Below, one piece after another: positions 1 to 45,386 of a DNA stretch of 64,000 nucleotides. The position numbers and the translations under genes are program-made. Source of the DNA: Anaerolineales bacterium (GTDB taxonomy: Bacteria; Chloroflexota; Anaerolineae; Anaerolineales; UBA11579); contig DAOMSJ010000002.1 of NCBI GenBank assembly GCA_035446285.1, forward strand, positions 182,592 to 246,591, in the 5' to 3' direction. The notes beneath the pieces are model-generated. The model ran no database searches. It was not told where the DNA came from and worked only from the letters and a program-made list of their open reading frames with translations. Position 1 is the stretch's first letter; the number at the start of each line of letters is the position of its first letter.

Positions 1-835
1 ACACCGCCGATCTCGCTGTTCATGAGAGTCTGCGCCAGCAGGTCGGCCAGCATGGGGCGCTCTTCAAACACGCGCAGGGCGCGCTGGGCGGCGTCCGCAT
101 CGCTGAACTCGGGTTGGGCCAAGACATTGGTCAGGCCGTCCTGTAGCACTTCACCGGTGAGCGGGCTCTGCGTATTCTGCAGCTCGGCCTGCACCAGCTT
201 GAAGATCTCGCCGGCCAGTTCGCCCATGGCGGGCGCGGGCGCCTGCATGGTATCCAGCGTCACGCCGCGCAGGTGCTGGTTGAGCTTATCCGCCGTGCTG
301 CTCAGACGCTCCTGGTCCATGGCATCTTTGAGCGCCAGCATTTGCTGGCGCACCAGGCCGTTCTCCAGCACCAGCACCATGAGCACCTGGCGGCCGGTGG
401 TGAGAATGAGCTCCAAGTGCTTGAAGCGCGCCGATTGTGTCTGCGGGGCGGTGATGAGCGAGGCGGCGCGCGATTGGTTGGCCAGCACCGAGGCGGCCAG
501 CTTCATCCACTGCTGCGTCTCGTGGCGCGCCTGGTAGAACTGGTGGCTGATGGTATGGCGCAGCGAAGCCGGCAGCTCCTGGCGCGCCATCAGCTCACCC
601 ACGAAGAAACGAAAGCCTTCCTCAGTGGGCACACGGCCGGCAGAGGTGTGCGGCTGACGCAGGTAGCCGGCTTCGGTAAGCTCGGCCATCTCGTTGCGAA
701 TGGTGGCCGAGCTAAAATCCAGCGCGTACTGATCCATTAGGCGCTTGGAGCCGACCGGCTGGGTGCTTTCAACGAAATCCTGAACGATGAGGCCCAGGAT
801 GAGCTTTTGGCGCTCGCTAAGTGGTTGAACGGTCA
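1..835 (-). CDS. hrcA: Heat-inducible transcription repressor HrcA (3' end runs off the window start)
   Basis: Absent from the ORF track because it is open to the window edge. My minus-strand translation from the ATG at 835-833 reads MTVQPLSERQKLILGLIVQDFVESTQPVGSKRLMDQYALDFSSATIRNEMAELTEAGYLRQPHTSAGRVPTEEGFRFFV..., a typical HrcA N-terminus. A perfect CIRCE lies just upstream. The plus-strand ORFs 22..537 and 273..740 are antisense artefacts. Confidence 0.9.
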
Positions 836-850
836 TGTTCTGGCATTTTT

Positions 851-877
851 TTAGCACTCTCACATCGAGAGTGCTAA
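851..877. promoter_or_regulatory. CIRCE operator (HrcA binding site), TTAGCACTC-N9-GAGTGCTAA
   Basis: The sequence ttagcactc tcacatcga gagtgctaa is an exact match to the CIRCE inverted-repeat consensus. It lies 16 nt upstream of the hrcA ATG. Confidence 0.95.
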
Positions 878-892
878 AGCACACTATTCCTC

Positions 893-921
893 ATTTTAAC
901 AAGCGTAAACAGGGCAGTCAA
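893..921 (-). promoter_or_regulatory. Sigma70-type promoter of hrcA (TTGACT-17 nt-TAAAAT on the minus strand)
   Basis: The minus strand reads TTGACT gccctgtttacgcttgt TAAAAT. CIRCE follows about 15 nt downstream of the -10 box. Confidence 0.7.
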
Positions 922-975
922 GAAAATGACTGTCCTGTGGGCGTTTCTTACAAAGGTCTAAGATGGACGAAAGGC

Positions 976-2175
976 TTACTGATTGACCGAGTCAAAGGCC
1001 TGCTGCACATAAATGGAGTTGGGGTTAGCCTCACGCGCCAGGTTGAACTGCTCCAACATGCCGGCGCGGTCACCCTGTTTCTGCAGCATCCAGCCCTTCC
1101 ACAGCAGCACATCTTCAGAGTTGGGCGTGATCACCAGCGCGTAGTCAACGAGCTGCTGCATATCGTCCAGCCGATTGGTGTGATAGTAGGCCCAGAAGGG
1201 GCCGAACTGGTAGCGCAGCATACGCATGGGCAGGCCGATCACGCGCGCCTGGTCAAAGGCCACAGCAGCGTTGCCGTAATCCGCCAGGTAGACCTGGTTC
1301 ATGCCCAGGTTGAACCAGGCGTAAGCATTGTCTGGTTGCTGCTCCACTTCCAGCTGTGAAGCCAGCAGGGCGTTCTGGCGATTGACACGCGCATCCCAAT
1401 CCTCACCCAGGATGGCCTCTACCGTAGCGGCCTGCTCCGGGCGGAAGACGAGGTTGTAGACGCGGTTGAAATGCTGCCACCACATATCAAATTCTTCGTA
1501 GCCCATGCGCTGGTCAGGCCCGTTGTAGCTGTCCTGAAAAATAAACTCACCGGCCGCATCGTCATAGCCAGTGACCAGGGCGTAGTGCCCATTCCAGTAA
1601 TCATCATTGAAGAGGTAATCGATCTCAATGACATGGCCCTTTTCCACCATCACGGGAATGCCGGCGGCCAGTAGTTGTTTGATCATTTCGAGGCTGCCGT
1701 TGACGCGGAACAGGGTGTTCAGCGCGCCCACGTTGACGCGCACGTAATAATCCAGCTCATCCACATTCACATTGCGGTCTGCTGAGACGGGCTTGATGAC
1801 ATCCGAGATGGTGTATTGATCGCCACCCCAGCCATAGAAGCGCAAGTACATCGCCAGCGTGGCCGGGCCGCAGTTGTTTGGCCCCTGAGTGATGTGCGCC
1901 GGGGGCGGCAGCACCATCAACGCAGGCAGCGGCGTGGGGCTGGCTTGCGGGGTGGCCGTGGGCGGCGCCGGCGTGTGCGTTGGCAAAACCTGCTGGCTGC
2001 TGATGGCCACTTGCGGCGGCGGCAGCTCACCAACAGGATTCAGGCGGCTGCGCACAAAGACCTGCGCCAGGTCCAGGCGCCACTCCAGCCGTTCTTTGAC
2101 GGCTGGGATCTGATACACAAGCACGGCCAGCAACACCAGGCCGAGCAAGACAAAAGCAATGTTACGAATACGCAT
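976..2175 (-). CDS. Membrane-anchored peptidase C39-like (BtrH-like) protein with C-terminal TPR-like repeats
   Basis: 399-aa ORF with an N-terminal TM helix (IAFVLLGLVLLAVLVY) and a Pro-rich linker. It carries a Cys motif NNCGPATLAMYLRFYGW and a His motif GHYALVTGYDD, as in C39-like peptidases. The tail is TPR-like (AYAWFNLGMNQVYLADYGNAAVAFDQA). Confidence 0.65.
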   Translation of the reverse strand: MRIRNIAFVLLGLVLLAVLVYQIPAVKERLEWRLDLAQVFVRSRLNPVGELPPPQVAISSQQVLPTHTPAPPTATPQASPTPLPALMVLPPPAHITQGPNNCGPATLAMYLRFYGWGGDQYTISDVIKPVSADRNVNVDELDYYVRVNVGALNTLFRVNGSLEMIKQLLAAGIPVMVEKGHVIEIDYLFNDDYWNGHYALVTGYDDAAGEFIFQDSYNGPDQRMGYEEFDMWWQHFNRVYNLVFRPEQAATVEAILGEDWDARVNRQNALLASQLEVEQQPDNAYAWFNLGMNQVYLADYGNAAVAFDQARVIGLPMRMLRYQFGPFWAYYHTNRLDDMQQLVDYALVITPNSEDVLLWKGWMLQKQGDRAGMLEQFNLAREANPNSIYVQQAFDSVNQ

Positions 2176-20390: not shown

Positions 20391-21779
20391 CTATTCGCCG
20401 TTCACCAGGCGCGTGGCGGCCTGGTTGTGCTGCTCGACCAAGACGGGAAGGTCGGCCGTTTGCAGTTGGCCTTCCTTCACGATGAAGCGGCCGCCCACCA
20501 CGGTGTAATCGGCCTGCACGGGGGCGCAGAAGACGAGGGCGGCCAGCGGGTCATGCAGGCCGCCGGCAAAGCCGAGCTGGTGCAGATTCACGGCGAAGAA
20601 ATCGGCGCACTTGCCGACTTCGAGTGAGCCGATGTCATTGCGGCCGAGCACAGCGGCGCCGCCGCGCGTGGCCAGCTCCAGGGCAGTGCGGGCGGTCATC
20701 AGCGGCGGGGCATCCTCGCCGGAGAGCGAGGCGCCGCGCTGCCCGGCGTCGAGCCGCGCCAGCAGCATAGCCTGGCGCACCTCGGCCAGGAGGTGCGAGC
20801 TGTCGTTGCTGGCCGAGCCATCCACACCCAGGCCGACGCGCACGCCGGCGTTGAGCATCTTGAGCACCGGCGGGATACCGGAGGCCAGGCGCATGTTGGA
20901 GGATGGGCAGTGCGCTACGCCGCAGTTGTGCTGGGCGTACTGGGCAATCTCAGCATCGTTGACATGCACGGAATGGGCATACCAAACATCCGGCCCGAGC
21001 CAATCCATCGTTTCCATCCAGGCCACCGGGCGCATACCATAGTGCTGCTGCGTGTATTGCTCTTCATCCTGCGTCTCAGCCAAGTGCGTGTGCATGTGCA
21101 CGCCGTAGTGGCGCGCCAGCTTGGCCGTCTCGCGCATCAGGTCAGGCGAGACGTTGAACGGCGAACACGGCGCCAGCACCACTTGAATCAGCGCGCCGGG
21201 CTTGGCGTCGTGATAGGTCTCGACCAGGCGGCGGCTCTCGGCCAGCACCTGGGCGTCTGTTTCGACCACGCTGTCGGGCGGCAGGCCGCCCTGGCTCTCG
21301 CCGAGGGTCATCGAGCCGCGCGAGGCTTGCAGGCGCAGGCCCATTTGCAGGGCGGCCTCGATCTGGTCATCCAGGCGCGCACCGTTGGGATAGATGTAGA
21401 GATGGTCGGAGGCGGTGGTGCAACCCGAGAGCGCCAGCTCGGCCAGCGCGGTGCGCGTGGCGACTTTCACATCCTCAGGTGTGAGGCGTGCCCAAATGGG
21501 ATACAGTGTGGTGAGCCAGTTGAACAGATTGACGTTCTGGGCGGCGGGCACGGCGCGCGTGAGGATCTGCACGAAGTGATGGTGCGTATTGACCAGGCCG
21601 GGCAGCAGCACATGGCCGCGCAGATCCAGCACCTCGTCTGCGCTTTGGGGCAGCTCGGCGCTGGGCCCCACGTGTTCAATGAAGCCATCACGGATGAAGA
21701 GGCCACCGTCTTGAATTTCGCGGCGTTGCTCATCCATCGTGGCCATCAGGGTGGCATTGTGTACAAGGAGTGTGCTCAT
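20391..21779 (-). CDS. ATZ/TRZ-family amidohydrolase (8-oxoguanine deaminase / SsnA-like)
   Basis: Contains PGLVNTHHHFVQILTR (HxH), HTHLAET, AHSVH and GVDGSASND. I chose the start at MSTLLVHNATL (21779). Confidence 0.8.
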   Translation of the reverse strand: MSTLLVHNATLMATMDEQRREIQDGGLFIRDGFIEHVGPSAELPQSADEVLDLRGHVLLPGLVNTHHHFVQILTRAVPAAQNVNLFNWLTTLYPIWARLTPEDVKVATRTALAELALSGCTTASDHLYIYPNGARLDDQIEAALQMGLRLQASRGSMTLGESQGGLPPDSVVETDAQVLAESRRLVETYHDAKPGALIQVVLAPCSPFNVSPDLMRETAKLARHYGVHMHTHLAETQDEEQYTQQHYGMRPVAWMETMDWLGPDVWYAHSVHVNDAEIAQYAQHNCGVAHCPSSNMRLASGIPPVLKMLNAGVRVGLGVDGSASNDSSHLLAEVRQAMLLARLDAGQRGASLSGEDAPPLMTARTALELATRGGAAVLGRNDIGSLEVGKCADFFAVNLHQLGFAGGLHDPLAALVFCAPVQADYTVVGGRFIVKEGQLQTADLPVLVEQHNQAATRLVNGE

Positions 21780-22128
21780 AGGGAAGTAATGATACGCCAT
21801 CGTGCGCCAATGCCCAACGCGGCCATTGCTTGACAAAGCTATAGGGCGTTTGTTAGGATTGTGTATAAGTGATTGATTTCACTTGCTAGTCCCATCGTCA
21901 TCGTTTGGCAACAGGCCGCCACGACGTTCAAACTGACGTAATGTGCCCCCATGGGGCGCTTTCCGCCGAGTACGCCGAGCGGCCTTCGTTTTAATTTGCG
22001 CCTGTGCAAACCGGGCGTAAACCTCACATAGGGAATAGGATTTTGAAACCTTCCGGCTTATTTAGTTGTAGGCTAAATGGGACGGGCAACCCTGCGAGCT
22101 ACTCTGTGAGTTACTCTGCGAGTTATAT

Positions 22129-32002: not shown

Positions 32003-33220
32003 ATGTCGAAGCGTTTCTTGGCTTTGATCGCCATCCTGGTAGCTGGCCTGGTGCTGGTTGCCTGCGGCGGCGGTGGAGCCTCCACTGCTTTTGAATGTAC
32101 GGACGAAATCGGTTGTGTGGAAGTAGCCGCGGGTGCCCCCATCCGCATTGCTTCCGCCCTGGTGATCTCCGGTGCTAACGCCGACCTGGGTCTGGACTCC
32201 CAGCACGGTGTCGAAATCGCCATTGAGTTCAAGGGCGATGTGCTCGGCCACGCGGTTGAGCTGCAGGCTGAAGATGACGGCTGCTCCGCTGAAGGCGGTC
32301 AGACCGCTGGTCAGAAGATTGTGTCTGACCCCAGCATTGTCGCCATCATCGGTACCAGCTGCTCCGGCGCTGGTGTACCCCTGGCCCAGATTGCCTCTGA
32401 CGCCGGTTACGCCGTTGTTTCCCCGTCCAACACGTCCCCGGCTCTGACCGACCCGGACGGCGCCTGGAAGCCTGGTTACCTGCGCACTGCCCACAACGAC
32501 AACGTTCAGGGCGCTGCCATGGCTGACTATGTGTACAACACCCTGGAGCTGACCACGGCCGCCGCCATTCATGACGGTGACCCGTACACCGAGGGTCTGG
32601 CCAACGCGTTCCGCGTGGCCTTCGAGGAAATGGGCGGCACGATGGTTGCCTTCACCGCTGTGAACGTGGGTGACACGGACATGCGCCCGGTGCTGACCTC
32701 CATCGCTGCTAGCGCTGGTGGTGCTCCTGAGTTCCTGTTCTTCCCGGTCTTCACCGCTGAGTGCGCCCACCTGGCCACCCAGTCCCTGGAAGTGGCTGGC
32801 CTGGAGAACACGGCCCGTGGCGCTGCTGACGGCTGCTTCTCCGCCGCCGCTGCTGAGGCCATTGGTTCCTCCACCGCCAACCTGTACATCTCCGGCCCGG
32901 ATCTGGCCTTCTCTGGCGACACTTACACTCGCTTCGCTGAGGCCTACCAGACCAACTACGGTTCCGCCCCGATCTCCGTCTTCCATGCTCACGCTTTCGA
33001 CGCCACCAACATGGTGTTCGCCTGCATCGAGCAGGTTGCCAAGGAGAGCGACGGCTCCCTGTTGATCGGCCGCCAGGACATACGTGACTGCTTGTATGCC
33101 ACCGAGAACTTCACTGGCATCACCGGCAACCTCACCTGCAATGAGTACGGTGACTGTGCTGACGCCAAGATCGCTGTGTACGAGATCCAGGATGGCGACT
33201 ATGTTGCCATCTGGCCGTAA
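32003..33220 (+). CDS. Branched-chain amino acid ABC transporter substrate-binding lipoprotein (LivK/J-like)
   Basis: Has a lipoprotein signal LVLVACGGGG and a type I periplasmic binding fold pattern. GGAGG lies upstream. Confidence 0.85.
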   Translation: MSKRFLALIAILVAGLVLVACGGGGASTAFECTDEIGCVEVAAGAPIRIASALVISGANADLGLDSQHGVEIAIEFKGDVLGHAVELQAEDDGCSAEGGQTAGQKIVSDPSIVAIIGTSCSGAGVPLAQIASDAGYAVVSPSNTSPALTDPDGAWKPGYLRTAHNDNVQGAAMADYVYNTLELTTAAAIHDGDPYTEGLANAFRVAFEEMGGTMVAFTAVNVGDTDMRPVLTSIAASAGGAPEFLFFPVFTAECAHLATQSLEVAGLENTARGAADGCFSAAAAEAIGSSTANLYISGPDLAFSGDTYTRFAEAYQTNYGSAPISVFHAHAFDATNMVFACIEQVAKESDGSLLIGRQDIRDCLYATENFTGITGNLTCNEYGDCADAKIAVYEIQDGDYVAIWP

Positions 33221-33305
33221 GCTGCAACGTTCTTAGCAGAACATTGCTTTACAAAAGGCCCAGGGCGCAAGCCCTGGGCCTCTAGCACTACGCCGGAGCA
33301 TACGC

Positions 33306-34367
33306 ATGAGAGACCGCCTTGCAAAACTCAACTTGATCGACCTGTTCTTATGGGTTGCGCGCGCTGCCATTCTGGCCGTGATTTTGGTGGGCACGATCAA
33401 GACCATCATCAGCAACCCTTACTCCCTTCGTAACTGGGAAGACTTCATTATCTTTGGCATTGCGCAAGGCAGCATGTATGCGCTGATCGCCATTGGTTAC
33501 ACGCTGGTATACGGCGTGCTGCAAATGATCAACTTTGCGCACGGCGAATTTTTTATGTCAGGCATCTTCGCTTCCACCTCGGCGGTGGCCATTCCCCTGG
33601 CCAACGCAGGCTACCTGGCCTCCCACCCCATTCCGAGCCTGTTGCTGATTGCACTGACCTCTATTCTTATCTCGGTGGGAATTTCGCTGCTGACGGAACG
33701 CATTGCGTACCGCCCGCTGCGGTATGCACCGCGCCTGATGCCGCTGATCACAGCGATCGGTGCTTCCTTCTTTTGGCAATACTACTTCCGCGGCCTGTTT
33801 GGCTCACAAGTTATTCCCTTCCCTGACATTCCGCAGTTGCAGGGCAGTCTGCCCTTTCTGCATACCCAAGTGCTGAAAACGCACGTCCTGGTGATCTTTG
33901 TGACCATGGTGGTATTGGTGGCGCTGAACTTCTTCATTAGCAGCACCCGCCCGGGCAAGGCGATCCGCGCCGTGGCCGAGAACAAAGATGTGGCGGCGCT
34001 GATGGGCATCAACGTAGACCGCACAATCAGCCTGACCTTTGCCACTGGCGCCGCAATGGCGGGTGTGGCAGGCATGCTGTATGCGCTGGTGTTCCAGCAA
34101 GTGCACTTCTTCATGGGCTTCATTCCCGGCATCAAGGCCTTTACGGCAGCGGTGCTGGGCGGTATTGGCAGCATCCCCGGCGCGGCCGTGGGCGGCTTGT
34201 TCCTGGGCCTGTTTGAATCGCTTGGCCCCAGCCTGTTCCTGCAAAGCCTGGGCATTCCGGCCTTCAACCAGCTCAAGGATGTGATCGCCTTCACCATGCT
34301 GGTGCTGGTGCTCATCTTCCGCCCGCAAGGTATTGTGGGTGAGCGTCTGAAAGAAAAGAAAGCGTAG
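33306..34367 (+). CDS. livH: Branched-chain amino acid ABC transporter permease (LivH-like)
   Basis: Contains GYTLVYGVLQMINFAHGE and GGIGSIPGAAVGG. Confidence 0.88.
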   Translation: MRDRLAKLNLIDLFLWVARAAILAVILVGTIKTIISNPYSLRNWEDFIIFGIAQGSMYALIAIGYTLVYGVLQMINFAHGEFFMSGIFASTSAVAIPLANAGYLASHPIPSLLLIALTSILISVGISLLTERIAYRPLRYAPRLMPLITAIGASFFWQYYFRGLFGSQVIPFPDIPQLQGSLPFLHTQVLKTHVLVIFVTMVVLVALNFFISSTRPGKAIRAVAENKDVAALMGINVDRTISLTFATGAAMAGVAGMLYALVFQQVHFFMGFIPGIKAFTAAVLGGIGSIPGAAVGGLFLGLFESLGPSLFLQSLGIPAFNQLKDVIAFTMLVLVLIFRPQGIVGERLKEKKA

Positions 34368-34375
34368 AGGTTGCG

Positions 34376-36022
<1,647 letters not shown>

Positions 36023-36049
36023 CCAGTTGGCGAGGAACGGACGACAACC

Positions 36050-36847
36050 ATGACAAACATCCTGTCTGCAAAAAACGTATCCAAGGTCTTTGGCGGCCTG
36101 GTGGCGGTGAATGACCTGAGCCTTGAGGTGAAAGAGCAGAGCATCAGCTCTGTGATCGGCCCCAACGGCGCGGGCAAGACCACCTTCTTCAACTGCGTGA
36201 CCGGCTTCTACAAGATCAACAAAGGCGAAATCCTGTTTGAGGGCCAGCCGACACACAACCTGCGCCCTGACCAGGTGACCCATGCGGGTATGGCGCGCAC
36301 GTACCAGAACATCCGCCTGTTTGCTAACATGACCTCGCTGGAGAACATCCTGGTGGGCCAGGACCTGCATCTGTATGCCACCATCTTTGATGCGATTGCG
36401 CACACGCCGCGCTTCAAGAAGCAAGAGCAGGAAGTGCTGGAAGAAGCGCAACGCCTGCTGAACTTTGTGGGCCTGAAAGGCCTGGGCGACACGCTGGCAC
36501 GCAACCTGCCTTACGGCGCACAACGCCGCCTGGAGATTGCGCGTGCGCTGGCCACCAAGCCGAAGATGCTGCTGCTGGACGAGCCGACGGCGGGCATGAA
36601 CCCGAACGAGACGGCGGACCTGACCAAGTTCATCCGCGATCTGCGTGACACGCTGGGCATCACCGTACTGATGATCGAGCACGACATGCGCGTGGTGATG
36701 GGCATCAGTGAGCAGATCACGGTGCTGGACTACGGCGCCAAGATCGCCGAAGGGAAGCCCAAAGACATCCAAAGCGACCCGCGCGTGATCGAGGCGTACC
36801 TTGGCAGCGGTGCGGCCTCTGGCCTGAAGACCGCCAAGGCGAAATAA
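36050..36847 (+). CDS. livG: Branched-chain amino acid ABC transporter ATP-binding protein (LivG-like)
   Basis: Has Walker A GPNGAGKTT, the signature YGAQRRLEIARAL and Walker B LLLDEP. Confidence 0.92.
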   Translation: MTNILSAKNVSKVFGGLVAVNDLSLEVKEQSISSVIGPNGAGKTTFFNCVTGFYKINKGEILFEGQPTHNLRPDQVTHAGMARTYQNIRLFANMTSLENILVGQDLHLYATIFDAIAHTPRFKKQEQEVLEEAQRLLNFVGLKGLGDTLARNLPYGAQRRLEIARALATKPKMLLLDEPTAGMNPNETADLTKFIRDLRDTLGITVLMIEHDMRVVMGISEQITVLDYGAKIAEGKPKDIQSDPRVIEAYLGSGAASGLKTAKAK

Positions 36848-36859
36848 GGAGCAGCCCCT

Positions 36860-37573
36860 ATGGCCATGCTTGAAGTTAACAACATTCACACTTTCTACGG
36901 CAACATTGAAGCCTTGAAGGGCATCTCGCTGCATGTGGATCAGGGCGAGATTGTGACCCTGATCGGCGGCAATGGCGCCGGCAAGACCACCACCCTGCGC
37001 ACGATCAGCGGCTTGCTGAAACCGCGCCAGGGCACGGTCACGCTGAACGGCGAAGACCTGAGCAAATACCCCGCGCACCAACTGGTGTACAAGGGTATCT
37101 CGATGGTGCCGGAAGGCCGCGGCGTGTTCGCCAAGCTGACGGTGGAAGAGAACATTGAAATGGGCGCCTACATCGACAAAGATAAGGCGCGCATTGAGCG
37201 CAACAAAGAAGGCGCCTTCACTCGCTTTCCGCGCCTGAAAGAGCGCCGCAAGCAGGTGGCCGGCACGCTCTCCGGCGGGGAGCAGCAAATGCTGGCCATC
37301 GCACGCGCGCTGATGGCGCAGCCCAAGCTGCTGCTGCTGGACGAGCCTTCGATGGGTCTGGCGCCGATCCTGGTGGACGGCATCTTCGACACCATCAAGG
37401 AGATCAACAAGGAAGGCACCACGGTGCTGCTGGTGGAGCAGAACGCCAGCATGGCGCTGGCGATCGCCCACCGCGGCTACGTGCTGCAGACCGGCGAGAT
37501 CGTGCTGAGCGACAAGGCCGACAAGTTGGCCAAGAACGAGACGGTGCAGAAGGCTTACCTGGGTATTGACTAA
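36860..37573 (+). CDS. livF: Branched-chain amino acid ABC transporter ATP-binding protein (LivF-like)
   Basis: Has Walker A GGNGAGKTT, the signature LSGGEQQMLAIARAL and Walker B LLLDEP. Confidence 0.92.
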   Translation: MAMLEVNNIHTFYGNIEALKGISLHVDQGEIVTLIGGNGAGKTTTLRTISGLLKPRQGTVTLNGEDLSKYPAHQLVYKGISMVPEGRGVFAKLTVEENIEMGAYIDKDKARIERNKEGAFTRFPRLKERRKQVAGTLSGGEQQMLAIARALMAQPKLLLLDEPSMGLAPILVDGIFDTIKEINKEGTTVLLVEQNASMALAIAHRGYVLQTGEIVLSDKADKLAKNETVQKAYLGID

Positions 37574-37746: not shown

Positions 37747-39723
37747 TTAGGACGTGGCTATCTTGAGATAGTCACGCGGCTCGGCGGCCTGGGTGGACAG
37801 GCCGAGCAGGGTGGCAAGCTCAATGATGAGCTTGGCCTTGGCATCCGCATCTCGCTGGCTCCAGGTGCGGCTCTTGATCTCAACGAAACTGCCCAGGGCG
37901 GGCTTGTCCATGCGGTCTACGTTGACGTAGAAATCGGTGTCGCGGAAACGCACCAGCCAGCGGCGGCGATCCTTCTCGACCTCGATTTCACGCTCCGGCT
38001 GGAAGTATTCACGGTAGAAGCGCAGGCTTTGGTCTGCGGGCGCCAAGTAGCGGCTGCGCGAGAGCACCACCTCGCTGGGCAAATCACGCTCGTGCGAGTC
38101 ACCGATGAGGGTCAGGCGGTAACGGGAGTTATCCGGCTGGCCACTATCCTCGAGGAAGACATCTTCACGGTAGCGCAGGATGTACTTCTCATGCGAGGGG
38201 AAGATGAAGTAGCTGTCGTACTCGTGATAGTGGCGCTTGTAGACGATCGTGATCTCAGGATGTTGCAGGGCGGCCACCACGGCTTCGGGGTCTTCCACCG
38301 GGACTTTGAGTTGGGCCTCGAAGCTCTCTTCCTGTGTGGCGCCACCGATGGCGATGAGCTTGGTGAGCACCGACTTCTCACGAGCAATGAGGAACTTATC
38401 GATCTTCTTGGCCAGCTCGCCAGCCTGCTCGAGCAGCGCAGTCTCATCCAGCGTGGTGAGCTGCTTGCTCTGCATGAGCCACTTGCCGTTGACCATCACA
38501 TCGGTCACATCTGTGGACTTGGCGGCGTAGACGATCTGCGAATAGGTGCTATTGGGGTCTCGGCTGAAGTGCGGCGAGGCATGCAGGGTGTCAATATCCA
38601 CCAGGATGAGGTCAGCACGCTTACCCGGCTCCAGCGAGCCGGTGATGTCGCCGATGTGCATGGCCTGCGCCCCGAGGCGGGTAGCCATGAGCAGCGCGGT
38701 CTGGGCGGGCAGCACGGTGGGATCACTCTCGCGCAGCTTGGCGAGGAAAGCGGCCAGGCGCACTTCCTCGAACATGTCGAGGTCGTTGTTGGAGGCTGGG
38801 CCATCCGTGCCGATGCCGACGTTGAGGCCGGCACGCAGCATCTCGTTGACTGGCGCAGCGCCGGAGGCGAGCTTCATGTTGGACGAAGGGTTGTGCGAGA
38901 CGCCCACGTTGTAGTGGGCAAAGGTGTTGATCTCACCCTGATCGAGGTGTACACAGTGGGCGGCGAGCACCTTGGCATCAAAGAGATTCTGCTTCTTCAC
39001 GTAAGGCACCACCGGCATGCCCCATTCTTTGCGGGCATTCTCAACCTCGAAGGAGGTCTCAGCGATGTGGGTGTGCAGCGGCACGTCAAACTCCACCGCC
39101 AGGGCGGCAGAGGCCCGCAAAAGCTCCTCGGTGCTGCTGTAGGGTGCGTGCGGTGAAACGGCGGGCACGATGAGCGGGTGGCCCTTCCACTTTTGGATGA
39201 ACTCACGCGTGTAGGCCAGCGATTCTTCGTAGAACTTGGCATCCGGCGTGGGGAACTTCATGATGGTCTGCCCGCACACCGCACGCATACCGGCCGCGGC
39301 GGCCGCCTCGGCCACGGTGGACTCGTAGTAGTACATGTCTGCGAAGCTGGTGATGCCAGAGCGGATGTATTCGGCGCAACCGATGGAGGTGCCGAGGTGC
39401 ACAAAATCTGGTGTGACGAATTCGCGCTCGACGGGGATCATGTAGCCCATCAGCCACACATCCAGGCGCAGGTCATCGGCCAGGCCGCGCAGCAGGGTCA
39501 TGGGCACATGCGTATGTGCGTTGACCAGGCCGGGCATCACCACTTTGCCGCGGCAATCCAGTTTGTCTGCGGATTCGTATCTTTTCAGGATCTCATCTTC
39601 CGGCCCGGCGGCCAGAATGCTGTCACCGAGGATGGCGACGGCGCCCTTGGGGAATTGGTGCATCTCCTCATTCATGGTGAGGACGTGGGCGTTGGTAAGA
39701 ATTAAGTCTGCTTTAGTAGCCAA
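37747..39723 (-). CDS. MtaD-like (ATZ/TRZ family) nucleoside deaminase fused to a C-terminal CYTH-like domain
   Basis: 658 aa. The N-terminal 445 aa contain PGLVNAHTHVPM, HTHIAET and GIGTDGPASNN. The C-terminal 190 aa contain FEAQLKV, ILRYRED, RLTLIG and LGSFVEIKS, a pattern like CyaB/ThTPase CYTH domains. Confidence 0.8.
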   Translation of the reverse strand: MATKADLILTNAHVLTMNEEMHQFPKGAVAILGDSILAAGPEDEILKRYESADKLDCRGKVVMPGLVNAHTHVPMTLLRGLADDLRLDVWLMGYMIPVEREFVTPDFVHLGTSIGCAEYIRSGITSFADMYYYESTVAEAAAAAGMRAVCGQTIMKFPTPDAKFYEESLAYTREFIQKWKGHPLIVPAVSPHAPYSSTEELLRASAALAVEFDVPLHTHIAETSFEVENARKEWGMPVVPYVKKQNLFDAKVLAAHCVHLDQGEINTFAHYNVGVSHNPSSNMKLASGAAPVNEMLRAGLNVGIGTDGPASNNDLDMFEEVRLAAFLAKLRESDPTVLPAQTALLMATRLGAQAMHIGDITGSLEPGKRADLILVDIDTLHASPHFSRDPNSTYSQIVYAAKSTDVTDVMVNGKWLMQSKQLTTLDETALLEQAGELAKKIDKFLIAREKSVLTKLIAIGGATQEESFEAQLKVPVEDPEAVVAALQHPEITIVYKRHYHEYDSYFIFPSHEKYILRYREDVFLEDSGQPDNSRYRLTLIGDSHERDLPSEVVLSRSRYLAPADQSLRFYREYFQPEREIEVEKDRRRWLVRFRDTDFYVNVDRMDKPALGSFVEIKSRTWSQRDADAKAKLIIELATLLGLSTQAAEPRDYLKIATS

Positions 39724-39787: not shown

Positions 39788-40951
39788 CTAGTTTACCTCA
39801 TCCAGCAGCTTGCGCCGCAGGAAAGACAGCGCCAGGCTGGTGGCCCAGCCAGCGGCCTGGGTGGTGTGGCCGCCGTAGGGGAAGGCGACATGATGTGGAA
39901 TTTTGAGGCCGGTGATAAAGATCTCCAGCTCGTGGCCGCCGTCTTTGGCGGCGCGCAGCTCGACCGCCAGCACCAGGTCGGCGCGCACTTTGGAGGCGTA
40001 TTCGGTGGCAGCCAGCTTGAGCGGCTCGGTACGCAGGGTGGCGTGCAGCACCTCGCCACCGACGAAGGCATTGCCCTCGCCAGTGAAGGCTTTGACGAGG
40101 GCGCCGTTGAGCCCCTTCTCCAGCACGGCGATGGTTTGCTTGCGGTGGGCCACTTCACGCAACACGGCGCGGGCGAGCGTCTCTTCGTCTATACCGTGCA
40201 CCCAGTCGCCGAGGCGCTCGCGCACCTCGGCCTCGAGCGCATCCAGCATCTCGGCGGCCTGCTCGGGACTCTCGGCTTTGGCGGTCAGGCGCACGTCTAC
40301 ACTGCCGGCATGGGCGGCCAGGCCCACGGTGGGATTGGTCTGGCGCTCCAGGTCAGCCAGGTGCTGGTCAATTTGCGATTCGGGCACGCCAGCGGTGTGC
40401 AGCACGCGGGCACGGATGACCCCAGTGAGGCCAAAGTGCTCTTTGAAGTAGGGCAGGATACCGTGCTCATAGAGATAGCGCATTTCGCTGGGCACGCCGG
40501 GTACGGCGATGACGACTTTGCCGTTGTGTTCCACCAGCACGCCGGGGGCGCTGCCCACGGCGTTCTCCAGGCTGCGGCCACCCACGGGCAGCTCCGCCTG
40601 GCGCTTGTTGTTCTCGCTGGGGGTGCGCTTCATGCGCGCAAAGCGTGCTTCGATCTGCTGCCACAGCTCAGGGCGGAATTCGAGGCCAACGCCGAGGGCG
40701 CGGGCAATGCCCTCACGGGTGACATCGTCCACCGTGGGGCCGAGGCCGCCGGTGCACAGCAGGATGTCAGAGCGGCCGAGGCCGAGGGTCACGGCATCGG
40801 CGATGCGCTGCTCGTTGTCGCCCACGGTGGATGTGTAATACAGGTCAATGCCCGCGTCACGCAGTTGGCGCGCCAGGTATTGGGTGTTGGTGTCGGTGAT
40901 CTCACCGAGCAGCAGCTCGGTGCCGATGGTAAGGATCTCTGCGGATGGCAT
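39788..40951 (-). CDS. cinA: CinA-like competence/damage-inducible protein (MoCF-type N-domain, divergent C-domain)
   Basis: Begins MPSAEILTIGTELLLGEITDTNTQYLARQL and contains TGGLGPTVDD. The C-terminal domain lacks the AESCTGG-type motif (it has LEKGLNG). Confidence 0.8.
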   Translation of the reverse strand: MPSAEILTIGTELLLGEITDTNTQYLARQLRDAGIDLYYTSTVGDNEQRIADAVTLGLGRSDILLCTGGLGPTVDDVTREGIARALGVGLEFRPELWQQIEARFARMKRTPSENNKRQAELPVGGRSLENAVGSAPGVLVEHNGKVVIAVPGVPSEMRYLYEHGILPYFKEHFGLTGVIRARVLHTAGVPESQIDQHLADLERQTNPTVGLAAHAGSVDVRLTAKAESPEQAAEMLDALEAEVRERLGDWVHGIDEETLARAVLREVAHRKQTIAVLEKGLNGALVKAFTGEGNAFVGGEVLHATLRTEPLKLAATEYASKVRADLVLAVELRAAKDGGHELEIFITGLKIPHHVAFPYGGHTTQAAGWATSLALSFLRRKLLDEVN

Positions 40952-41137: not shown

Positions 41138-42289
41138 CTAGATGACATTGTATTCCTTCAACGATTCACTGCTGAAGCGGTCTAAGCCGAGCATAGACAC
41201 ATCTACCGAAGCAGCCGCCCCATCCAGCATGATCTCGGCCATCAGCTTGCCGGCAATTGGGCCGTGCATGAAGCCGTGGCCGGAGAAGCCCGCCACGAGG
41301 TAGAAGCCTTCTACAGGCGTTGCGCCAAAGATGGGGTGCGCATCCGGCGTGACCTCGTACAGCCCCGCCCAGTGGCTGGCCAGGCCGGCCTGCTCCAGCA
41401 GCGGCAGGCGTGCTACGCCATTCTCCATGTGCACCAGCTCCCACTCGGGGTCCACGTTCTGGTCAAAGCCGGGGGCCTGGTCAGGATTGGACATGCCGGT
41501 AAGCAAGCCTTCGCCCTCACGATGGAAATACAGTGACTTGGCAAAATCGATCACAAAGGGGAAATCGGCCGGGATGCCGGGTAGCGGTGTAGTGGTGACG
41601 ATCTGGCGGCGCACCGGAATGATGGGAATGTGTACCCCGGCCATCCTGCCGATGGGTGCGGCCCACGGGCCAGCGGCGTTGAGCACCAACGGGGCGGCAA
41701 TGCTGCCCTGGTTGGTGTGCACGCCAGTGATGGCGCCGCCTTCCACTTGCAGGCCGGTGACCTCGATATTGCCGAGGCAGGTAGCGCCCAGCTTGGTGGC
41801 GGCGTTGATGTAGCCCATCACCACGCTGTTAGGGTCGCACAGGCCATCGGCGGCGTTGTAGGTGCCCTTGAGCACATCATCCAGGTTCATTTGCGGCAAG
41901 CGGGCACGGATCTCATCGCCGGAGAGCCATTGGGTGTCTACACCCAGGCTGTTTTGCAGAGCCACGTTTTTTTCGAAAACGGCGATATCGGCGTCGTTGG
42001 TGAGCAGGAATAGGTAGCCACACTTGCGGTAATCCACCTCCTGGCCGATCTCCTCCGGAAAGCGCTCCAGCATGGGCAGGCTGGCGAGGCTGAGGCGAAT
42101 GTTGACCTCAGTGCCGAACTGGTAGCGCACGCCGCCGGCGCAGCGCCCGGTAGCGCCCTGCCCGAAGAATTCATCTTTCTCGAGCAGCACCACATCTTTG
42201 ACGCCGCGCTGGGCGAGGTGATAGGCCGCCGAGGCGCCCATGACGCCGCCGCCGATGATGACCACTGAAGCTGTTTTGGGAAGGCTCAA
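41138..42289 (-). CDS. FAD-dependent oxidoreductase (sarcosine oxidase beta / D-amino-acid oxidase-like, DAO family)
   Basis: Contains the Rossmann motif VVIIGGGVMGASAAYHLAQRG. Its length and C-terminal GFSGHGFMHGP are typical of the DAO family. Confidence 0.85.
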   Translation of the reverse strand: MSLPKTASVVIIGGGVMGASAAYHLAQRGVKDVVLLEKDEFFGQGATGRCAGGVRYQFGTEVNIRLSLASLPMLERFPEEIGQEVDYRKCGYLFLLTNDADIAVFEKNVALQNSLGVDTQWLSGDEIRARLPQMNLDDVLKGTYNAADGLCDPNSVVMGYINAATKLGATCLGNIEVTGLQVEGGAITGVHTNQGSIAAPLVLNAAGPWAAPIGRMAGVHIPIIPVRRQIVTTTPLPGIPADFPFVIDFAKSLYFHREGEGLLTGMSNPDQAPGFDQNVDPEWELVHMENGVARLPLLEQAGLASHWAGLYEVTPDAHPIFGATPVEGFYLVAGFSGHGFMHGPIAGKLMAEIMLDGAAASVDVSMLGLDRFSSESLKEYNVI

Positions 42290-42302
42290 CGATATCTCCT
42301 TG

Positions 42303-43295
42303 TTACCAGGCTACTTGGGTGCCAATGCCCAGTTTGTGGGCATTGGCAACGGCGACGCGGGCAGCCATGGCATCTTGCACAGCCACGCCCACGGATTTAA
42401 AGAAGGTGATCTGCTCGGCGGAGCTACGCCCAGGCGCCTGGCCGTTGAGCACCGCGCCGATCTCATGAATATTGTCAGCGGCGAGCAGCCCCTGTTGCAG
42501 GGTCATGGCGATCTCGCCGCTCTCGGCTTGCGTGGCCGAGCGGCTGTCTACGGTGACGTGAGCACGCGCCACCAGCTCGCTGGGCACCTCGATGGCATCG
42601 GCCGTGTAAGAGCCCGCCGCGTTGATGTGCGTGCCGGGGCGCACATCGGCAGCGGCGAAGACGGGTGTAGGGCTGGTGGTGGCGGTACTGATAATGTCGG
42701 CGTTGGCGGCCGCCTCTTGCGGGCTGGCGGCGGCACGCAGGTCTTTGGGAATGCGCCCCACCCCGGCCATCTCAGTGATGAAAGCAGCGGCCTGCTCGGC
42801 GTTGGGTGAGTAGACCCACGCGGTTTCAATGTCACGCACTTCGCAGGCAGCGGCCAGCTGGGTGCGGGCTTGAACGCCAGCGCCAAAGACCGCCACCGTG
42901 CGCGCATCGGGGCGGGCAAGCACATCGGTGGCGGCGCCGCAGCCGGCGCCGGTGCGGATGGCGGTGACGGCGGCGCCCTCCAGGATGGCTTGCAGTGCGC
43001 CGGTTTCGGGGTCGAAGGCGAGCACCACGGCGTTGATGAGCGGCAGGCCGCGCGCCGGATTCTTGTTGAACAGCGAAACCAGCTTGACGGCCAAGGCCTG
43101 CTCCTGGGCCGAGGCGCCATCCACGAAGGCGGGCATGAGGATGCTCAGGCCCTCGTGCGGGGCTACGGTCAAGCGTGAGCGCAGCGGCACCTCGGCGGCG
43201 CCGCCAGACAGCGCGGCGTAGGCCTGCTTCATGGCGGCGATGCACTCGTGCATTGGCAGCGCCTGGCGGACTTCGTTAGCGGTAAGGATCAGCAT
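42303..43295 (-). CDS. Ornithine cyclodeaminase / mu-crystallin family protein
   Basis: 330 aa. Contains TAIRTGAG, the NAD motif VAVFGAGVQA and FKSVGVAVQD. Confidence 0.85.
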   Translation of the reverse strand: MLILTANEVRQALPMHECIAAMKQAYAALSGGAAEVPLRSRLTVAPHEGLSILMPAFVDGASAQEQALAVKLVSLFNKNPARGLPLINAVVLAFDPETGALQAILEGAAVTAIRTGAGCGAATDVLARPDARTVAVFGAGVQARTQLAAACEVRDIETAWVYSPNAEQAAAFITEMAGVGRIPKDLRAAASPQEAAANADIISTATTSPTPVFAAADVRPGTHINAAGSYTADAIEVPSELVARAHVTVDSRSATQAESGEIAMTLQQGLLAADNIHEIGAVLNGQAPGRSSAEQITFFKSVGVAVQDAMAARVAVANAHKLGIGTQVAW

Positions 43296-43475
43296 GGAGC
43301 AATTCTAAACCAGTCATGTATGACACCTCACCCCACTGAGTTAAATATTGGCGCACCCTTACCTTCCCTCCTCCCAAAGGAGAGGGAGACGAATGCAACA
43401 CTACAACCAAAATTCAACAGGCGAGGGAAACGGGCGCAGAACAAGCCTCAGAGCTATAATCGCTCACCAGGCCCG

Positions 43476-45386
43476 ATGGGCCGAGGAGTCACGCTGAGCG
43501 AGGAACAACCCACCCACAAATTGGATACGCCGCAGGACAGCAGCCACAGCCAACTGCAGCAGGGAGAAGTGCTGCAGGAGCGCTACGAGATCCAAGAGAT
43601 CGTAGGCATTGGCGGCATGGGGTCAGTGTATCGCGCCCGTGATAAGAACTTCAAAGCCATCCGCCTGGTAGCCATCAAGGAGATGATCAGCCAGGTGACC
43701 GACCCCCTGGTACGCAAGAACATCTTCCAGATCTTTGAGCGCGAAGCCAATATCCTCGCCACGCTGCGCCACCCCTCCATTCCACGCATTTACGATTACT
43801 TCACCATTGGCGAGCGCGCCTACCTGGTGCTGGAGTTCATTCACGGCAAGAACCTGGAGCAATTGCTGGCCGAGAGCAACAACTTCTTCCCTGAGGAGCA
43901 AGTGCTGGCCTGGGCGGTGGAGCTGTGTGATGTGCTGGATTATCTGCACAGCCACAAGCCAGAACCGATCATCTTCCGTGACATTAAGCCCTCCAACATC
44001 ATGAGTACGCTGCAGAACCACATCGCCCTGGTGGATTTTGGCATCGCCAAGGTATTTGAATCTGGCCAGAAGAATACGATGGTGGGAACGCAGGGCTACT
44101 CCCCGCCCGATCAGTACCGCGGCGAGGCGACGCCCAAGGTGGATATTTACGCGCTGGGCGCTACGTTGCACCACCTGCTGACGCTGCGCGATCCGCAGAT
44201 GGAGGCGCCCTTCTCATTTGGCGAGCGCCAGATCAGCGAGATCAACCCCAACGTCAGCCGCGAGATGGCGGCGGTGGTGGAGCGCGCCCTGGAGTACAAG
44301 CCAGAGGACCGCTACGACAGCGCCATTGAAATGAAAGAAGCGCTGATCAACGTGGCGCGCAAGACCGGCACGCTGCTCAACCTGAGCATCCCCACCGCGG
44401 TGAGCGGCAGCATGCCCAGCCGCGGCGTGGGCGTAAAGCCACTGTGGAGCTTTGAAGCTGAAGACGAGCTGCGCAGCTCGGCAGCGTATCATGATGGCAC
44501 GCTGTACATCGGCTGCTACGACAACAACCTGTATGCGCTGGACGCCTCCAACGGTGAGTTCAAGTGGAAGTACCCCACCGACGGCGGCATCACCAGCAAG
44601 CCAGCCATCTTTGACAACAACATTTACTTCGGCTCAGAAGACCGCCGTTTGCACGTCATCTCGACCCGCTCCGGCAAGGTGGTGTGGACGCACTACACTG
44701 AGGGCGCGGTGCGCTCCTCGCCGCGCATTGCTGAAGGGCACGTCTTCATCGGCTCAGATGATGGCAGCCTGCATGCGGTGAGCCTGAGCAGCGGGCGGCT
44801 GGCCTGGCGCTCAGAGGTGGGCTCGCCGGTGCGCTCCACCCCGTGGGTGGGCAACGAGCATGTGTACTTTGGCTCCGAAGCGGGCGATTTTACCGCCACC
44901 GATTTCCGCGGCGACCCGCGCTGGCGCTTCAAGGCCAAGCGCGCCATCACCTCTTCGCCGGTGCTGCAGGACGGCGTGGTGTATTTCAACTCCATGGACG
45001 GCACGCTCTACGCGCTGGACGCCAACTCCGGCTGGGCTGTGTGGCGCTTCCGCCTCGGCAAGGGCAGCATCTGCACCCCGGCCATCGCCGGCAATGTGCT
45101 CTACACCGGCGCCGCCGACCATATCATCTACGCCATTGACACGCGCTCGGCCAAGGAGTTGTGGCGCTATACCACCGAGCACCAGGTCAACGGCTCGCCC
45201 ATCGTGCATCGTGATGCAGTATATTGCGGCTCCGTGGATGGCAGCCTGTATTGCCTGGATGCGGCCAGCGGGCGTTTGCGCTGGCGCTACCAGACGGAGG
45301 CGCCCATCACCGGCACCCCGGTGGCGTATGACGATATGATCTTCATCGGCTCTACCGACAAGAAAGTGTATGCCTTCCTGGCATAG
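43476..45386 (+). CDS. Ser/Thr protein kinase with C-terminal PQQ-type beta-propeller, no TM segment
   Basis: The kinase motifs are GIGGMGSVYRA, VAIKE, IIFRDIKPSN, DFGIA and GTQGYSPPD. They are followed by about 8 repeats of the ...LYALDASNGEFKW type. The start is uncertain; alternative ATGs lie at 43320 and 43248. Confidence 0.85.
   Translation: MGRGVTLSEEQPTHKLDTPQDSSHSQLQQGEVLQERYEIQEIVGIGGMGSVYRARDKNFKAIRLVAIKEMISQVTDPLVRKNIFQIFEREANILATLRHPSIPRIYDYFTIGERAYLVLEFIHGKNLEQLLAESNNFFPEEQVLAWAVELCDVLDYLHSHKPEPIIFRDIKPSNIMSTLQNHIALVDFGIAKVFESGQKNTMVGTQGYSPPDQYRGEATPKVDIYALGATLHHLLTLRDPQMEAPFSFGERQISEINPNVSREMAAVVERALEYKPEDRYDSAIEMKEALINVARKTGTLLNLSIPTAVSGSMPSRGVGVKPLWSFEAEDELRSSAAYHDGTLYIGCYDNNLYALDASNGEFKWKYPTDGGITSKPAIFDNNIYFGSEDRRLHVISTRSGKVVWTHYTEGAVRSSPRIAEGHVFIGSDDGSLHAVSLSSGRLAWRSEVGSPVRSTPWVGNEHVYFGSEAGDFTATDFRGDPRWRFKAKRAITSSPVLQDGVVYFNSMDGTLYALDANSGWAVWRFRLGKGSICTPAIAGNVLYTGAADHIIYAIDTRSAKELWRYTTEHQVNGSPIVHRDAVYCGSVDGSLYCLDAASGRLRWRYQTEAPITGTPVAYDDMIFIGSTDKKVYAFLA

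Follow-up and report, generated by a model that had tools for sequence, protein, structure and literature searches.

What does a triphosphate-tunnel fold do when it is joined to a nucleoside deaminase? The question is raised by one gene in a stretch of 64,000 nucleotides from an Anaerolineales bacterium (assembly GCA_035446285.1, contig DAOMSJ010000002.1, positions 182,592 to 246,591; hereafter, the window), in which an MtaD-type deaminase is followed in the same reading frame by a divergent CYTH/TTM tunnel domain with altered acidic motifs. Compounds such as 5′-methylthioadenosine (MTA), S-adenosylhomocysteine (SAH), and 5′-deoxyadenosine (5′-dA) are inhibitory by-products of reactions that depend on S-adenosylmethionine (SAM), and to our knowledge the deaminase route for clearing them has been described only for stand-alone enzymes. 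An earlier note on this DNA, made from the sequence alone, offered two answers, a bifunctional enzyme or a tunnel that acts as a sensor regulating the deaminase, and these are still the two leading readings. We find that the fusion is a new domain architecture, that it is obligate, and that its tunnel has a distinctive ExQxK...ExK signature that is fixed. The pattern of residues favors the sensor, and we tentatively suggest, giving the idea a little less than an even chance, that an active MtaD-type deaminase is modulated by a TTM tunnel in which a ligand bearing a tri- or polyphosphate is bound but not hydrolyzed in the canonical way.

Gene and Domain Organization

The fusion protein of 658 amino acids is encoded on the reverse strand by an open reading frame (ORF; 37747..39723) that has no internal stop, starts with TTG (39723-39721), and ends at the stop codon 37749-37747. 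We consider the TTG start credible because the N-terminus, MATKADLILTNA, agrees with the consensus start of homologs; a purine-rich ribosome-binding site of the AAGGGA type is located ∼7–12 nt 5′ of it. A promoter and terminator scan returned nothing above background. The frame is single and uninterrupted, as the earlier note held: no frameshift or stop that splits two genes was found, and the halves are in frame and contiguous in nearly all related loci. All nine motifs quoted in that note occur, each once and at the expected relative position, with three in the deaminase half (VNAHTHVPM, residues 67–75; HTHIAET, 217–223; GTDGPASNN, 305–313) and six in the CYTH half (FEAQLKV, 468–474; DSYF, 503–506; ILRYRED, 515–521; RLTLIG, 536–541; EIEVEKDRRRW, 579–589; LGSFVEIKS, 610–618).

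The identity of the C-terminal half (residues 463–658; 37750..38337, reverse strand), a divergent CYTH/TTM β-barrel tunnel domain with C-terminal helices, was the less certain of the two. A Pfam scan of the whole fusion protein gave no CYTH match, and PF01928 searched against residues 465–658 alone reached 14.4 bits (E = 0.034; cut-off of 23.2 bits) while spanning profile positions 22–177 of 179. Searches of the C-terminal half with phmmer gave marginal matches to the Pyrococcus CYTH structures 1yem (E = 0.015) and 2dc4 (E = 0.07). A profile of 28 family sequences matched zero PDB sequences, and when 1.84 billion representatives were searched exhaustively with a profile, the yield was 335 proteins, all of them family members or fragments, and canonical CYTH proteins were never reached. 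Because detection from sequence is insufficient for the window protein, the assignment rests on the predicted fold, on profile–profile alignment, and on orthologs.

These three lines of evidence agree. The AlphaFold2 (AF2) model of residues 441–658, built from the 28-sequence alignment, has a predicted local distance difference test (pLDDT) score of 87.1 and a predicted template modeling (pTM) score of 0.83. When the model was searched with Foldseek, all 46 PDB matches at E ≤ 1e-3 belonged to the TTM/CYTH fold group, led by 3n0z (E = 1.2e-8), 7ns9, and 2een at E of ∼1e-8 and TM-scores of 0.70–0.74 (the best, 0.74, is PH1819 2een), with AtTTM3, ThTPase, Cet1, and Med18/20 among the further matches. 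The C-terminal domain of the fusion family aligned by hhalign to six canonical CYTH proteins from the same class, one of them encoded in this genome, with a probability of 93% and E of 2.8e-7 over 159 columns. In other families of the class, the orthologous fusions L032 and L029 clear the PF01928 cut-off, at 35.9 and 33.5 bits, and have the same altered motifs. The CYTH pattern that the earlier note recognized by eye thus stands. The PF01928 search that it proposed scores below the cut-off for the window protein and above it for these two orthologs, and structure prediction recovered the CYTH/TTM fold, whose possible absence had been raised as an objection. By the model, the C-terminal half is a CYTH/TTM tunnel, predicted as an eight-stranded antiparallel β-barrel, and this fold is shared with YpAC-IV (3n0z), SaTTM (7ns9), PH1819 (2een), AtTTM3 (5a5y), ygiF, and ThTPase.

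The Pfam CYTH model misses most members of the subfamily, which are consequently annotated as amidohydrolases only; in public databases they are entered as "amidohydrolase family protein" or "MTA/SAH deaminase". A search of the full-text literature on CYTH together with methylthioadenosine deaminases or Chloroflexi amidohydrolases found no description of the fusion. The only fusion partners listed in a recent survey of CYTH proteins are HD, exopolyphosphatase, nucleotidyl kinase, and CHAD (PMC8233210). Unlike in the surveyed fusions, the tunnel is here always C-terminal to a deaminase. One PF01928 match of ∼660 amino acids (L031) was rejected as a fusion because it is an unrelated CYTH–CHAD protein. 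The fusion tunnel is not the sole CYTH protein of this organism, since the genome also encodes a canonical CYTH protein of 206 amino acids with intact ELEVK and FVEIE (G000 contig C7:44853-45275; locus L001, ORF 1480-2100).

The N-terminal half is more readily placed. Residues 1–445 (38389..39723, reverse strand) form an MtaD/TRZ-ATZ-type amidohydrolase domain, and the claim that they resemble MTA/SAH deaminases is supported by a strong match of the fusion protein to PF01979 (Amidohydro_1; 243.6 bits against a cut-off of 25, E = 4.4e-72, residues 61–416, full profile covered) and by the best solved relative, Cv1032 (4f0r; 323 bits, E = 2e-95, residues 8–440), which was deposited as a 5-methylthioadenosine/S-adenosylhomocysteine deaminase. 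The next structure matches are related amidohydrolases that include 4dyk and Tm0936, and structures of 8-oxoguanine, guanine, and atrazine enzymes score far below Cv1032. Fold and length are the same as in the MTA/SAH deaminases Cv1032 (4f0r/4f0s), PA3170-type (4dyk), and Tm0936 (1p1m/2plm), and the HxH, His, His, and Asp metal ligands and the Glu of HxxE are common to both. In an alignment of 37 full-length homologs, H70, H72, H219, E222, H256, and D307 are invariant; we take E222 to be the catalytic Glu of HxxE and the other five to be the metal ligands. Residue E99, presumably involved in binding ribose, is present. Known MTA/SAH deaminases are single-domain proteins of ∼405–470 amino acids, whereas the fusion adds an extension of ∼215 amino acids consisting of the linker and CYTH domain, and its deaminase forms an orthologous clade of its own that is never found unfused.

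Judged by its closest relatives, the deaminase half most likely converts MTA, SAH, and/or 5′-dA to their inosine forms. We infer this substrate range rather than read it from an annotation because no NCBIfam equivalog cut-off was passed: scores were 448 bits for the TRZ/ATZ hydrolase PRK09045 (cut-off of 540), 420 bits for the N-ethylammeline chlorohydrolase PRK06038 (under its cut-off), 358 bits for the 5′-deoxyadenosine deaminase PRK07228 (cut-off of 522), and 295 bits for the MTA/SAH deaminase PRK15493 (cut-off of 779). That the fused deaminase is a divergent paralog with a new substrate was considered but is not supported, as its score of 323 bits to Cv1032 exceeds the 241 and 288 bits of standalone Chloroflexota paralogs. 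The window contains one standalone amidohydrolase paralog (20391-21836, reverse strand), a clear 8-oxoguanine deaminase (669 bits to NF006055, whose cut-off is 532). Because this second family member is an 8-oxoguanine deaminase, the fusion is the only MtaD-type gene in the genome.

Elsewhere in the genome are a homolog of MTA phosphorylase and a gene of the AdoHcyase family. Both would fit a putative pathway of the deaminate-then-cleave kind reviewed for SAM by-products in PMC10978960. At L029, a locus of a family that is more distant within the class, a gene resembling MTA phosphorylase (1-978, forward strand) is convergent with the fusion gene and ∼100 nt away. It is the sole context link to MTA metabolism seen, and the phosphorylase homolog of the window's genome is 55% identical to it.

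Two conserved helices join the domains (residues 427–462, IDKFLIAREKSVLTKLIAIGG; 38338..38445, reverse strand). The columns of F444, R448, E449, S451, K455, L456, and I459 are invariant, and helices are predicted at residues 427–449 and 452–458, with pLDDT of ∼62–64 over residues 441–470. The full-length model of 658 residues has a pLDDT of 85.9 and a pTM of 0.82. Because this pTM exceeds the expectation for a randomly placed smaller domain, the model suggests a defined inter-domain arrangement. Mean pairwise identity is 73% in the deaminase, 64.5% in the linker helices, and 63% in the barrel, and identities of deaminase and barrel correlate across sequence pairs (r = 0.72). Two invariant segments of the deaminase half, DDLRLDVWL (within residues 82–91) and PASNN (309–313, after the metal-binding Asp), have pLDDT values below 50 in the full-length model and are probably mobile active-site loops.

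Residues of the Tunnel

Residue counterparts were taken from the hhalign profile–profile alignment to canonical CYTH proteins and are given in ORF numbering; column counts are from 472 distinct family sequences aligned to the family hidden Markov model, ∼385–410 of which have a residue at any column. The strand FEAQLKV (38302..38322, reverse strand, as are all motifs below) is a modified ExExK strand, in which E469-x-Q471-x-K473 aligns to canonical E-x-E-x-K, so that E469 and K473 are kept and Q471 replaces the second Glu. Conservation is nearly complete at the three columns (Glu in 396/397, Gln in 401/404, and Lys in 403/404 sequences, respectively), and among the residues listed the exceptions at Q471 are Arg and His. 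In the last barrel strand, LGSFVEIKS (37870..37896), which is followed by a conserved SRTWS, E615 corresponds to the first Glu (Glu in 386/387) and K617 replaces the second (Lys in 384/386). Glu is absent among the residues listed at the columns of both Q471 and K617. Alignment and counts thereby confirm both substitutions proposed earlier, Gln for the second Glu of ExExK and Lys for the last Glu of GxFxEIE.

The canonical pairs of basic residues that would hold phosphate are retained, and others are added. ILRYRED (38161..38181) has the β3 RxR phosphate-binding pair R517/R519, conserved as Arg in 404/406 and 404/407 sequences, with R519 the counterpart of the invariant β3 Arg. EIEVEKDRRRW (37957..37989) has the canonical KxR pair as K584/R586, with R588 as an extra basic residue. 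Two further counterparts are D603, which aligns to a conserved Asp, and G611, which aligns to a conserved Gly. Conservation is at least 94% at each of R517, R519, R534, R536, R556, R558, K584, R586, R588, and R619, is at least 99% in the canonical RxR and KxR pairs, and is ∼83% at R497. Altogether ∼13 tunnel Arg/Lys residues, along with E469, D503, D603, and E615, are near-invariant, and the periodicity of the strands suggests that the conserved Arg/Lys face one side. The canonical β4 Lys position is Ile/Leu/Val at residue 540, and R558 aligns, with lower confidence, to the Glu of the R-x-E-x-E strand.

In common with canonical CYTH/TTM proteins, therefore, the fusion tunnel has the first Glu and the Lys of ExExK, DxY, the β3 RxR, KxR, the Asp before the last strand, and the site-1 Glu. 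Unlike them, it has Gln, Lys, and Arg for the second Glu of ExExK, the second Glu of the last strand, and the β5 Glu, respectively, has Ile/Leu/Val in place of the β4 Lys, and has extra Arg residues at 534, 536, 558, 588, and 619. As judged from the column counts, the altered ExQxK/ExK pattern is fixed and not decaying. Signatures of two characterized groups are absent from the domain: positions corresponding to the His-Phe of the AC-IV signature HFxxxxExExK (PMC8233210) are Thr-Gln (GGATQEESFEAQLK), and in place of the W/Y of the ThTPase signature W/YxRxR (PMC8233210), the residue two before R517 is Ile and is variable across the family.

The consequence of these changes can be predicted from what is known of the two TTM metal sites. 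Site 1 consists of a triphosphate–metal complex together with the first Glu of the last strand, which is invariant, and site 2 involves both Glu of ExExK and the second Glu of the last strand, mutation of which strongly reduces hydrolysis (Martinez et al., PMC4641920). Because E615 is retained and Q471 and K617 replace two of the site-2 ligands, the domain still has site 1 but little of site 2.

Distribution of the Fusion

The C-terminal region matches at least 6909 protein clusters, almost all of which are ∼660 amino acids in length. A survey of how widespread the fusion is, which the earlier note had called for, recovered at least 590 loci in a scan of species-representative genomes. Of 301 sampled genomes of the phylum, 62 have the domain, including all 28 of the same order, in a single copy each and in nearly all cases within a ∼660-aa open frame. 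Among the best 80 of the at least 590 loci, nearly all are labeled Anaerolineae/Chloroflexota, including the cultured Longilinea arvoryzae KOME-1; one is an 8-kb contig of a Calditrichia-labeled metagenome-assembled genome and may be mis-binned.

Fusion of the two halves is near-universal in these data. The barrel follows the deaminase half without a break in 86 of 87 loci; the one exception starts at a contig edge. In a search with the deaminase half only, every match of at least 46% identity was in a ∼660-aa frame, except in the two genomes G031 and G271, where the match is divided among two or more contigs. Standalone deaminase homologs of ∼445–470 amino acids have at most 41% identity, and some genomes have both fused and standalone kinds. 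No natural split of the two halves was found in the loci and genomes examined. By these comparisons the fusion is obligate, in that the fused deaminase clade is never found unfused.

Apparent exceptions were traced to assemblies. Two standalone C-domain proteins encoded on long contigs (P0219 and P0181) were rejected as frameshift artifacts, since an amidohydrolase ORF is directly upstream and other genes are fragmented as well. On the long metagenome contigs L121 and L122, the amidohydrolase is fragmented in both, and in L121 so are the CinA and glycosyltransferase genes. Breaks of this kind are typical of assemblies rich in indels, and through them domain proteins that falsely look standalone enter the protein database. 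A flag of one TGA inside the gene had been raised for several genomes from outside the class of the window, but a selenocysteine or split gene was rejected: at the one locus inspected, L008, the ORF is intact and the counted stop is apparently terminal.

Possible Functions of the Tunnel

We take the fusion protein to be a housekeeping enzyme with two domains in Anaerolineae and their relatives within Chloroflexota, and we suggest the following for it. The N-terminal domain would be a metal-dependent deaminase of the MtaD group that turns MTA, SAH, and/or 5′-dA into inosine forms, and its deaminated products could pass to the phosphorylase homolog and the AdoHcyase-family hydrolase whose genes are found elsewhere in the genome. 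The tunnel would use its site-1 Glu to anchor a triphosphate–metal complex, held by the RxR and KxR clamps and by the several added Arg, and catalytic site 2 would be lost, with two of its three Glu changed to Gln and Lys and the aligned fourth residue of the acidic patch changed to Arg. A tri- or polyphosphate-bearing ligand, for which inorganic triphosphate, polyphosphate, ATP/GTP, or an alarmone are candidates, would be bound and would not be hydrolyzed by the canonical two-metal mechanism. Binding without canonical hydrolysis is proposed because site 1 and the phosphate clamps are kept and most of site 2 is replaced. The ligand-bound state may be relayed to the deaminase via the conserved linker helices, as allosteric control or control of assembly. 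If so, a bacterial TTM fold is used in ligand sensing, and phosphate or energy status is linked to the clearance of SAM by-products. The predicted ligand-binding residues of the tunnel are conserved about as strictly as those of an active site.

By analogy, precedents exist for CYTH folds that are non-catalytic or lack the motifs, in Med18/20, Jhc1, and AtTTM1/2. A parallel in residues is the tunnel of Vtc4p, in which Glu of the acidic patch are replaced by basic residues and which keeps the site-1 Glu and triphosphate binding (PMC4641920). Unlike the fusion, Vtc4p is a eukaryotic polymerase bound in a membrane complex, and it is not among the top 50 Foldseek matches of the C-domain model. Med18/Med20, Jhc1, and plant TTM1/2 have the CYTH fold and have lost the hallmark acidic motifs, but they have lost motifs wholesale or adopt open structures, whereas the fusion tunnel keeps a conserved basic tunnel and the site-1 Glu.

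Several points weigh against modulation by a binding-only tunnel. The assignment of R558 to a Glu position is in a low-confidence stretch of the hhalign alignment, and one site-2 Glu (E469) and the DxY motif are still present. The linker, through which a signal would pass, is modeled with only moderate confidence (pLDDT of ∼62). With no equivalog cut-off cleared, the substrate of the deaminase may differ from MTA, SAH, and 5′-dA. Lastly, AtTTM1/2, which are without ExExK and ExE, show pyrophosphatase activity (PMC8233210).

Because E469 and DxY persist and AtTTM1/2 are active without the motifs, a non-canonical hydrolase has to be weighed, and we consider it unlikely but a serious contender. 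The protein would then be a true bifunctional enzyme, in which the remodeled tunnel is catalytic via a non-canonical, one-metal, or Lys-assisted mechanism and removes a phosphate by-product (inorganic triphosphate from adenosyl transfer, or pyrophosphate) while the deaminase clears the nucleoside by-product. Besides the site-1 Glu and the two features just named, every phosphate clamp is conserved, with the strictness typical of active sites, and Vtc4p functions with basic residues at acidic-patch positions (PMC4641920). However, mutation of the equivalents of the ExExK Glu strongly reduces hydrolysis by AtTTM3 and ygiF (PMC4641920), and here two site-2 ligands are replaced. A canonical CYTH protein with ExExK and ExE is, moreover, already encoded in the genome, and the link to a triphosphate by-product is conceptual. 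Were the tunnel catalytic, it would represent a TTM chemistry with no need of the canonical two-Glu site.

Loss of catalytic site 2 would also fit a barrel that binds no small ligand and is purely structural, for oligomerization, stability, or partner docking as in Med18/Med20. These proteins and Jhc1 are examples of CYTH folds that serve as non-catalytic scaffolds. We regard this as improbable. The ∼13 Arg/Lys predicted to face inward and the near-invariant E469, D503, D603, and E615 are a better fit for a ligand-lined tunnel than for a protein interface, and in a pure scaffold nothing would explain why the site-1 Glu is still there.

The two domains could instead share one substrate, with the tunnel gripping the polyphosphate tail of an adenosine compound whose adenine is deaminated by the N-terminal domain. 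Candidates are ATP, adenosine polyphosphates, and dinucleotides related to the substrates of CinA. The fusion is obligate, the arrangement of the domains is confidently predicted, and a binding-only tunnel would suit the holding of a substrate. The neighboring gene is also suggestive. A co-directional CinA-family gene with COG1058/MoCF_biosynth and CinA_KH domains (39788..40951, reverse strand) is immediately upstream of the fusion in the window. Among the nearest 80 relatives, from which context was taken, CinA is directly upstream in 54 of the 77 loci with enough upstream sequence to be informative (median gap of 21 nt; identity of 31–97%) and within ∼3 kb on the same strand in seven more, a linkage that these loci show for Anaerolineales-like genomes only. 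CinA is a conserved operon partner of the fusion gene, and COG1058 is a family of pyrophosphatases acting on ADP-ribose (PMC3680494, PMC4246079). A composite enzyme of this kind would be a new class of nucleotide, rather than nucleoside, deaminase in an operon for the clean-up of adenine nucleotides with the CinA/COG1058 pyrophosphatase. The deaminase is, however, closest to enzymes for uncharged or amino-acid 5′-substituents (Cv1032), and gene order alone is weak evidence, so we give the composite enzyme an outside chance.

That the fusion is an artifact, either of adjacent genes merged by a frameshift or of a chance CYTH match, has next to no probability: the window protein's Pfam CYTH score is sub-threshold and the family profile matches no PDB sequence, but the halves are contiguous in all but one of the 87 loci, the domain is in at least 590 species genomes, Foldseek and hhalign support CYTH, and "split" cases are confined to visibly frameshifted assemblies.

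Gene Neighborhood

CinA is the only neighbor of the fusion gene that is broadly retained; genes for the DAO-type oxidase, the ornithine cyclodeaminase, and the Liv transporter described below are in 17–28 of 87 loci. A PncC/PF02464 domain was not detected in the window CinA protein. Its C-terminal ∼130 amino acids resemble a degenerate PncC region, with LEKGLNG at the position where we take the PncC motif to be AESCTGG.

In close relatives, the co-directional order is ornithine cyclodeaminase/mu-crystallin, DAO-type oxidase, CinA, and fusion. In the window, an ornithine-cyclodeaminase/mu-crystallin-family gene and a gene for a DAO-type FAD oxidase resembling the β subunit of sarcosine oxidase occupy 41138-43295 (reverse strand), and five genes for a Liv-type branched-chain amino-acid ABC transporter occupy 32003-37573 (forward strand). 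These genes, syntenic in close relatives only, are probably a unit for the catabolism of imino or amino acids. Beyond them, a gene at 43248-45386 (forward strand) encodes a Ser/Thr protein kinase of 712 amino acids fused to PQQ-like β-propeller repeats. In the relatives L035 and L036, genes for PP2C phosphatase, DnaJ-VWA, and FHA proteins come after the kinase gene, an order suggestive of a conserved signaling cluster. Long antisense ORFs of up to 660 amino acids, such as that at 33782-35764 (reverse strand), are opposite real genes in this sequence of 60% GC and are compositional artifacts, shadow ORFs rather than genes.

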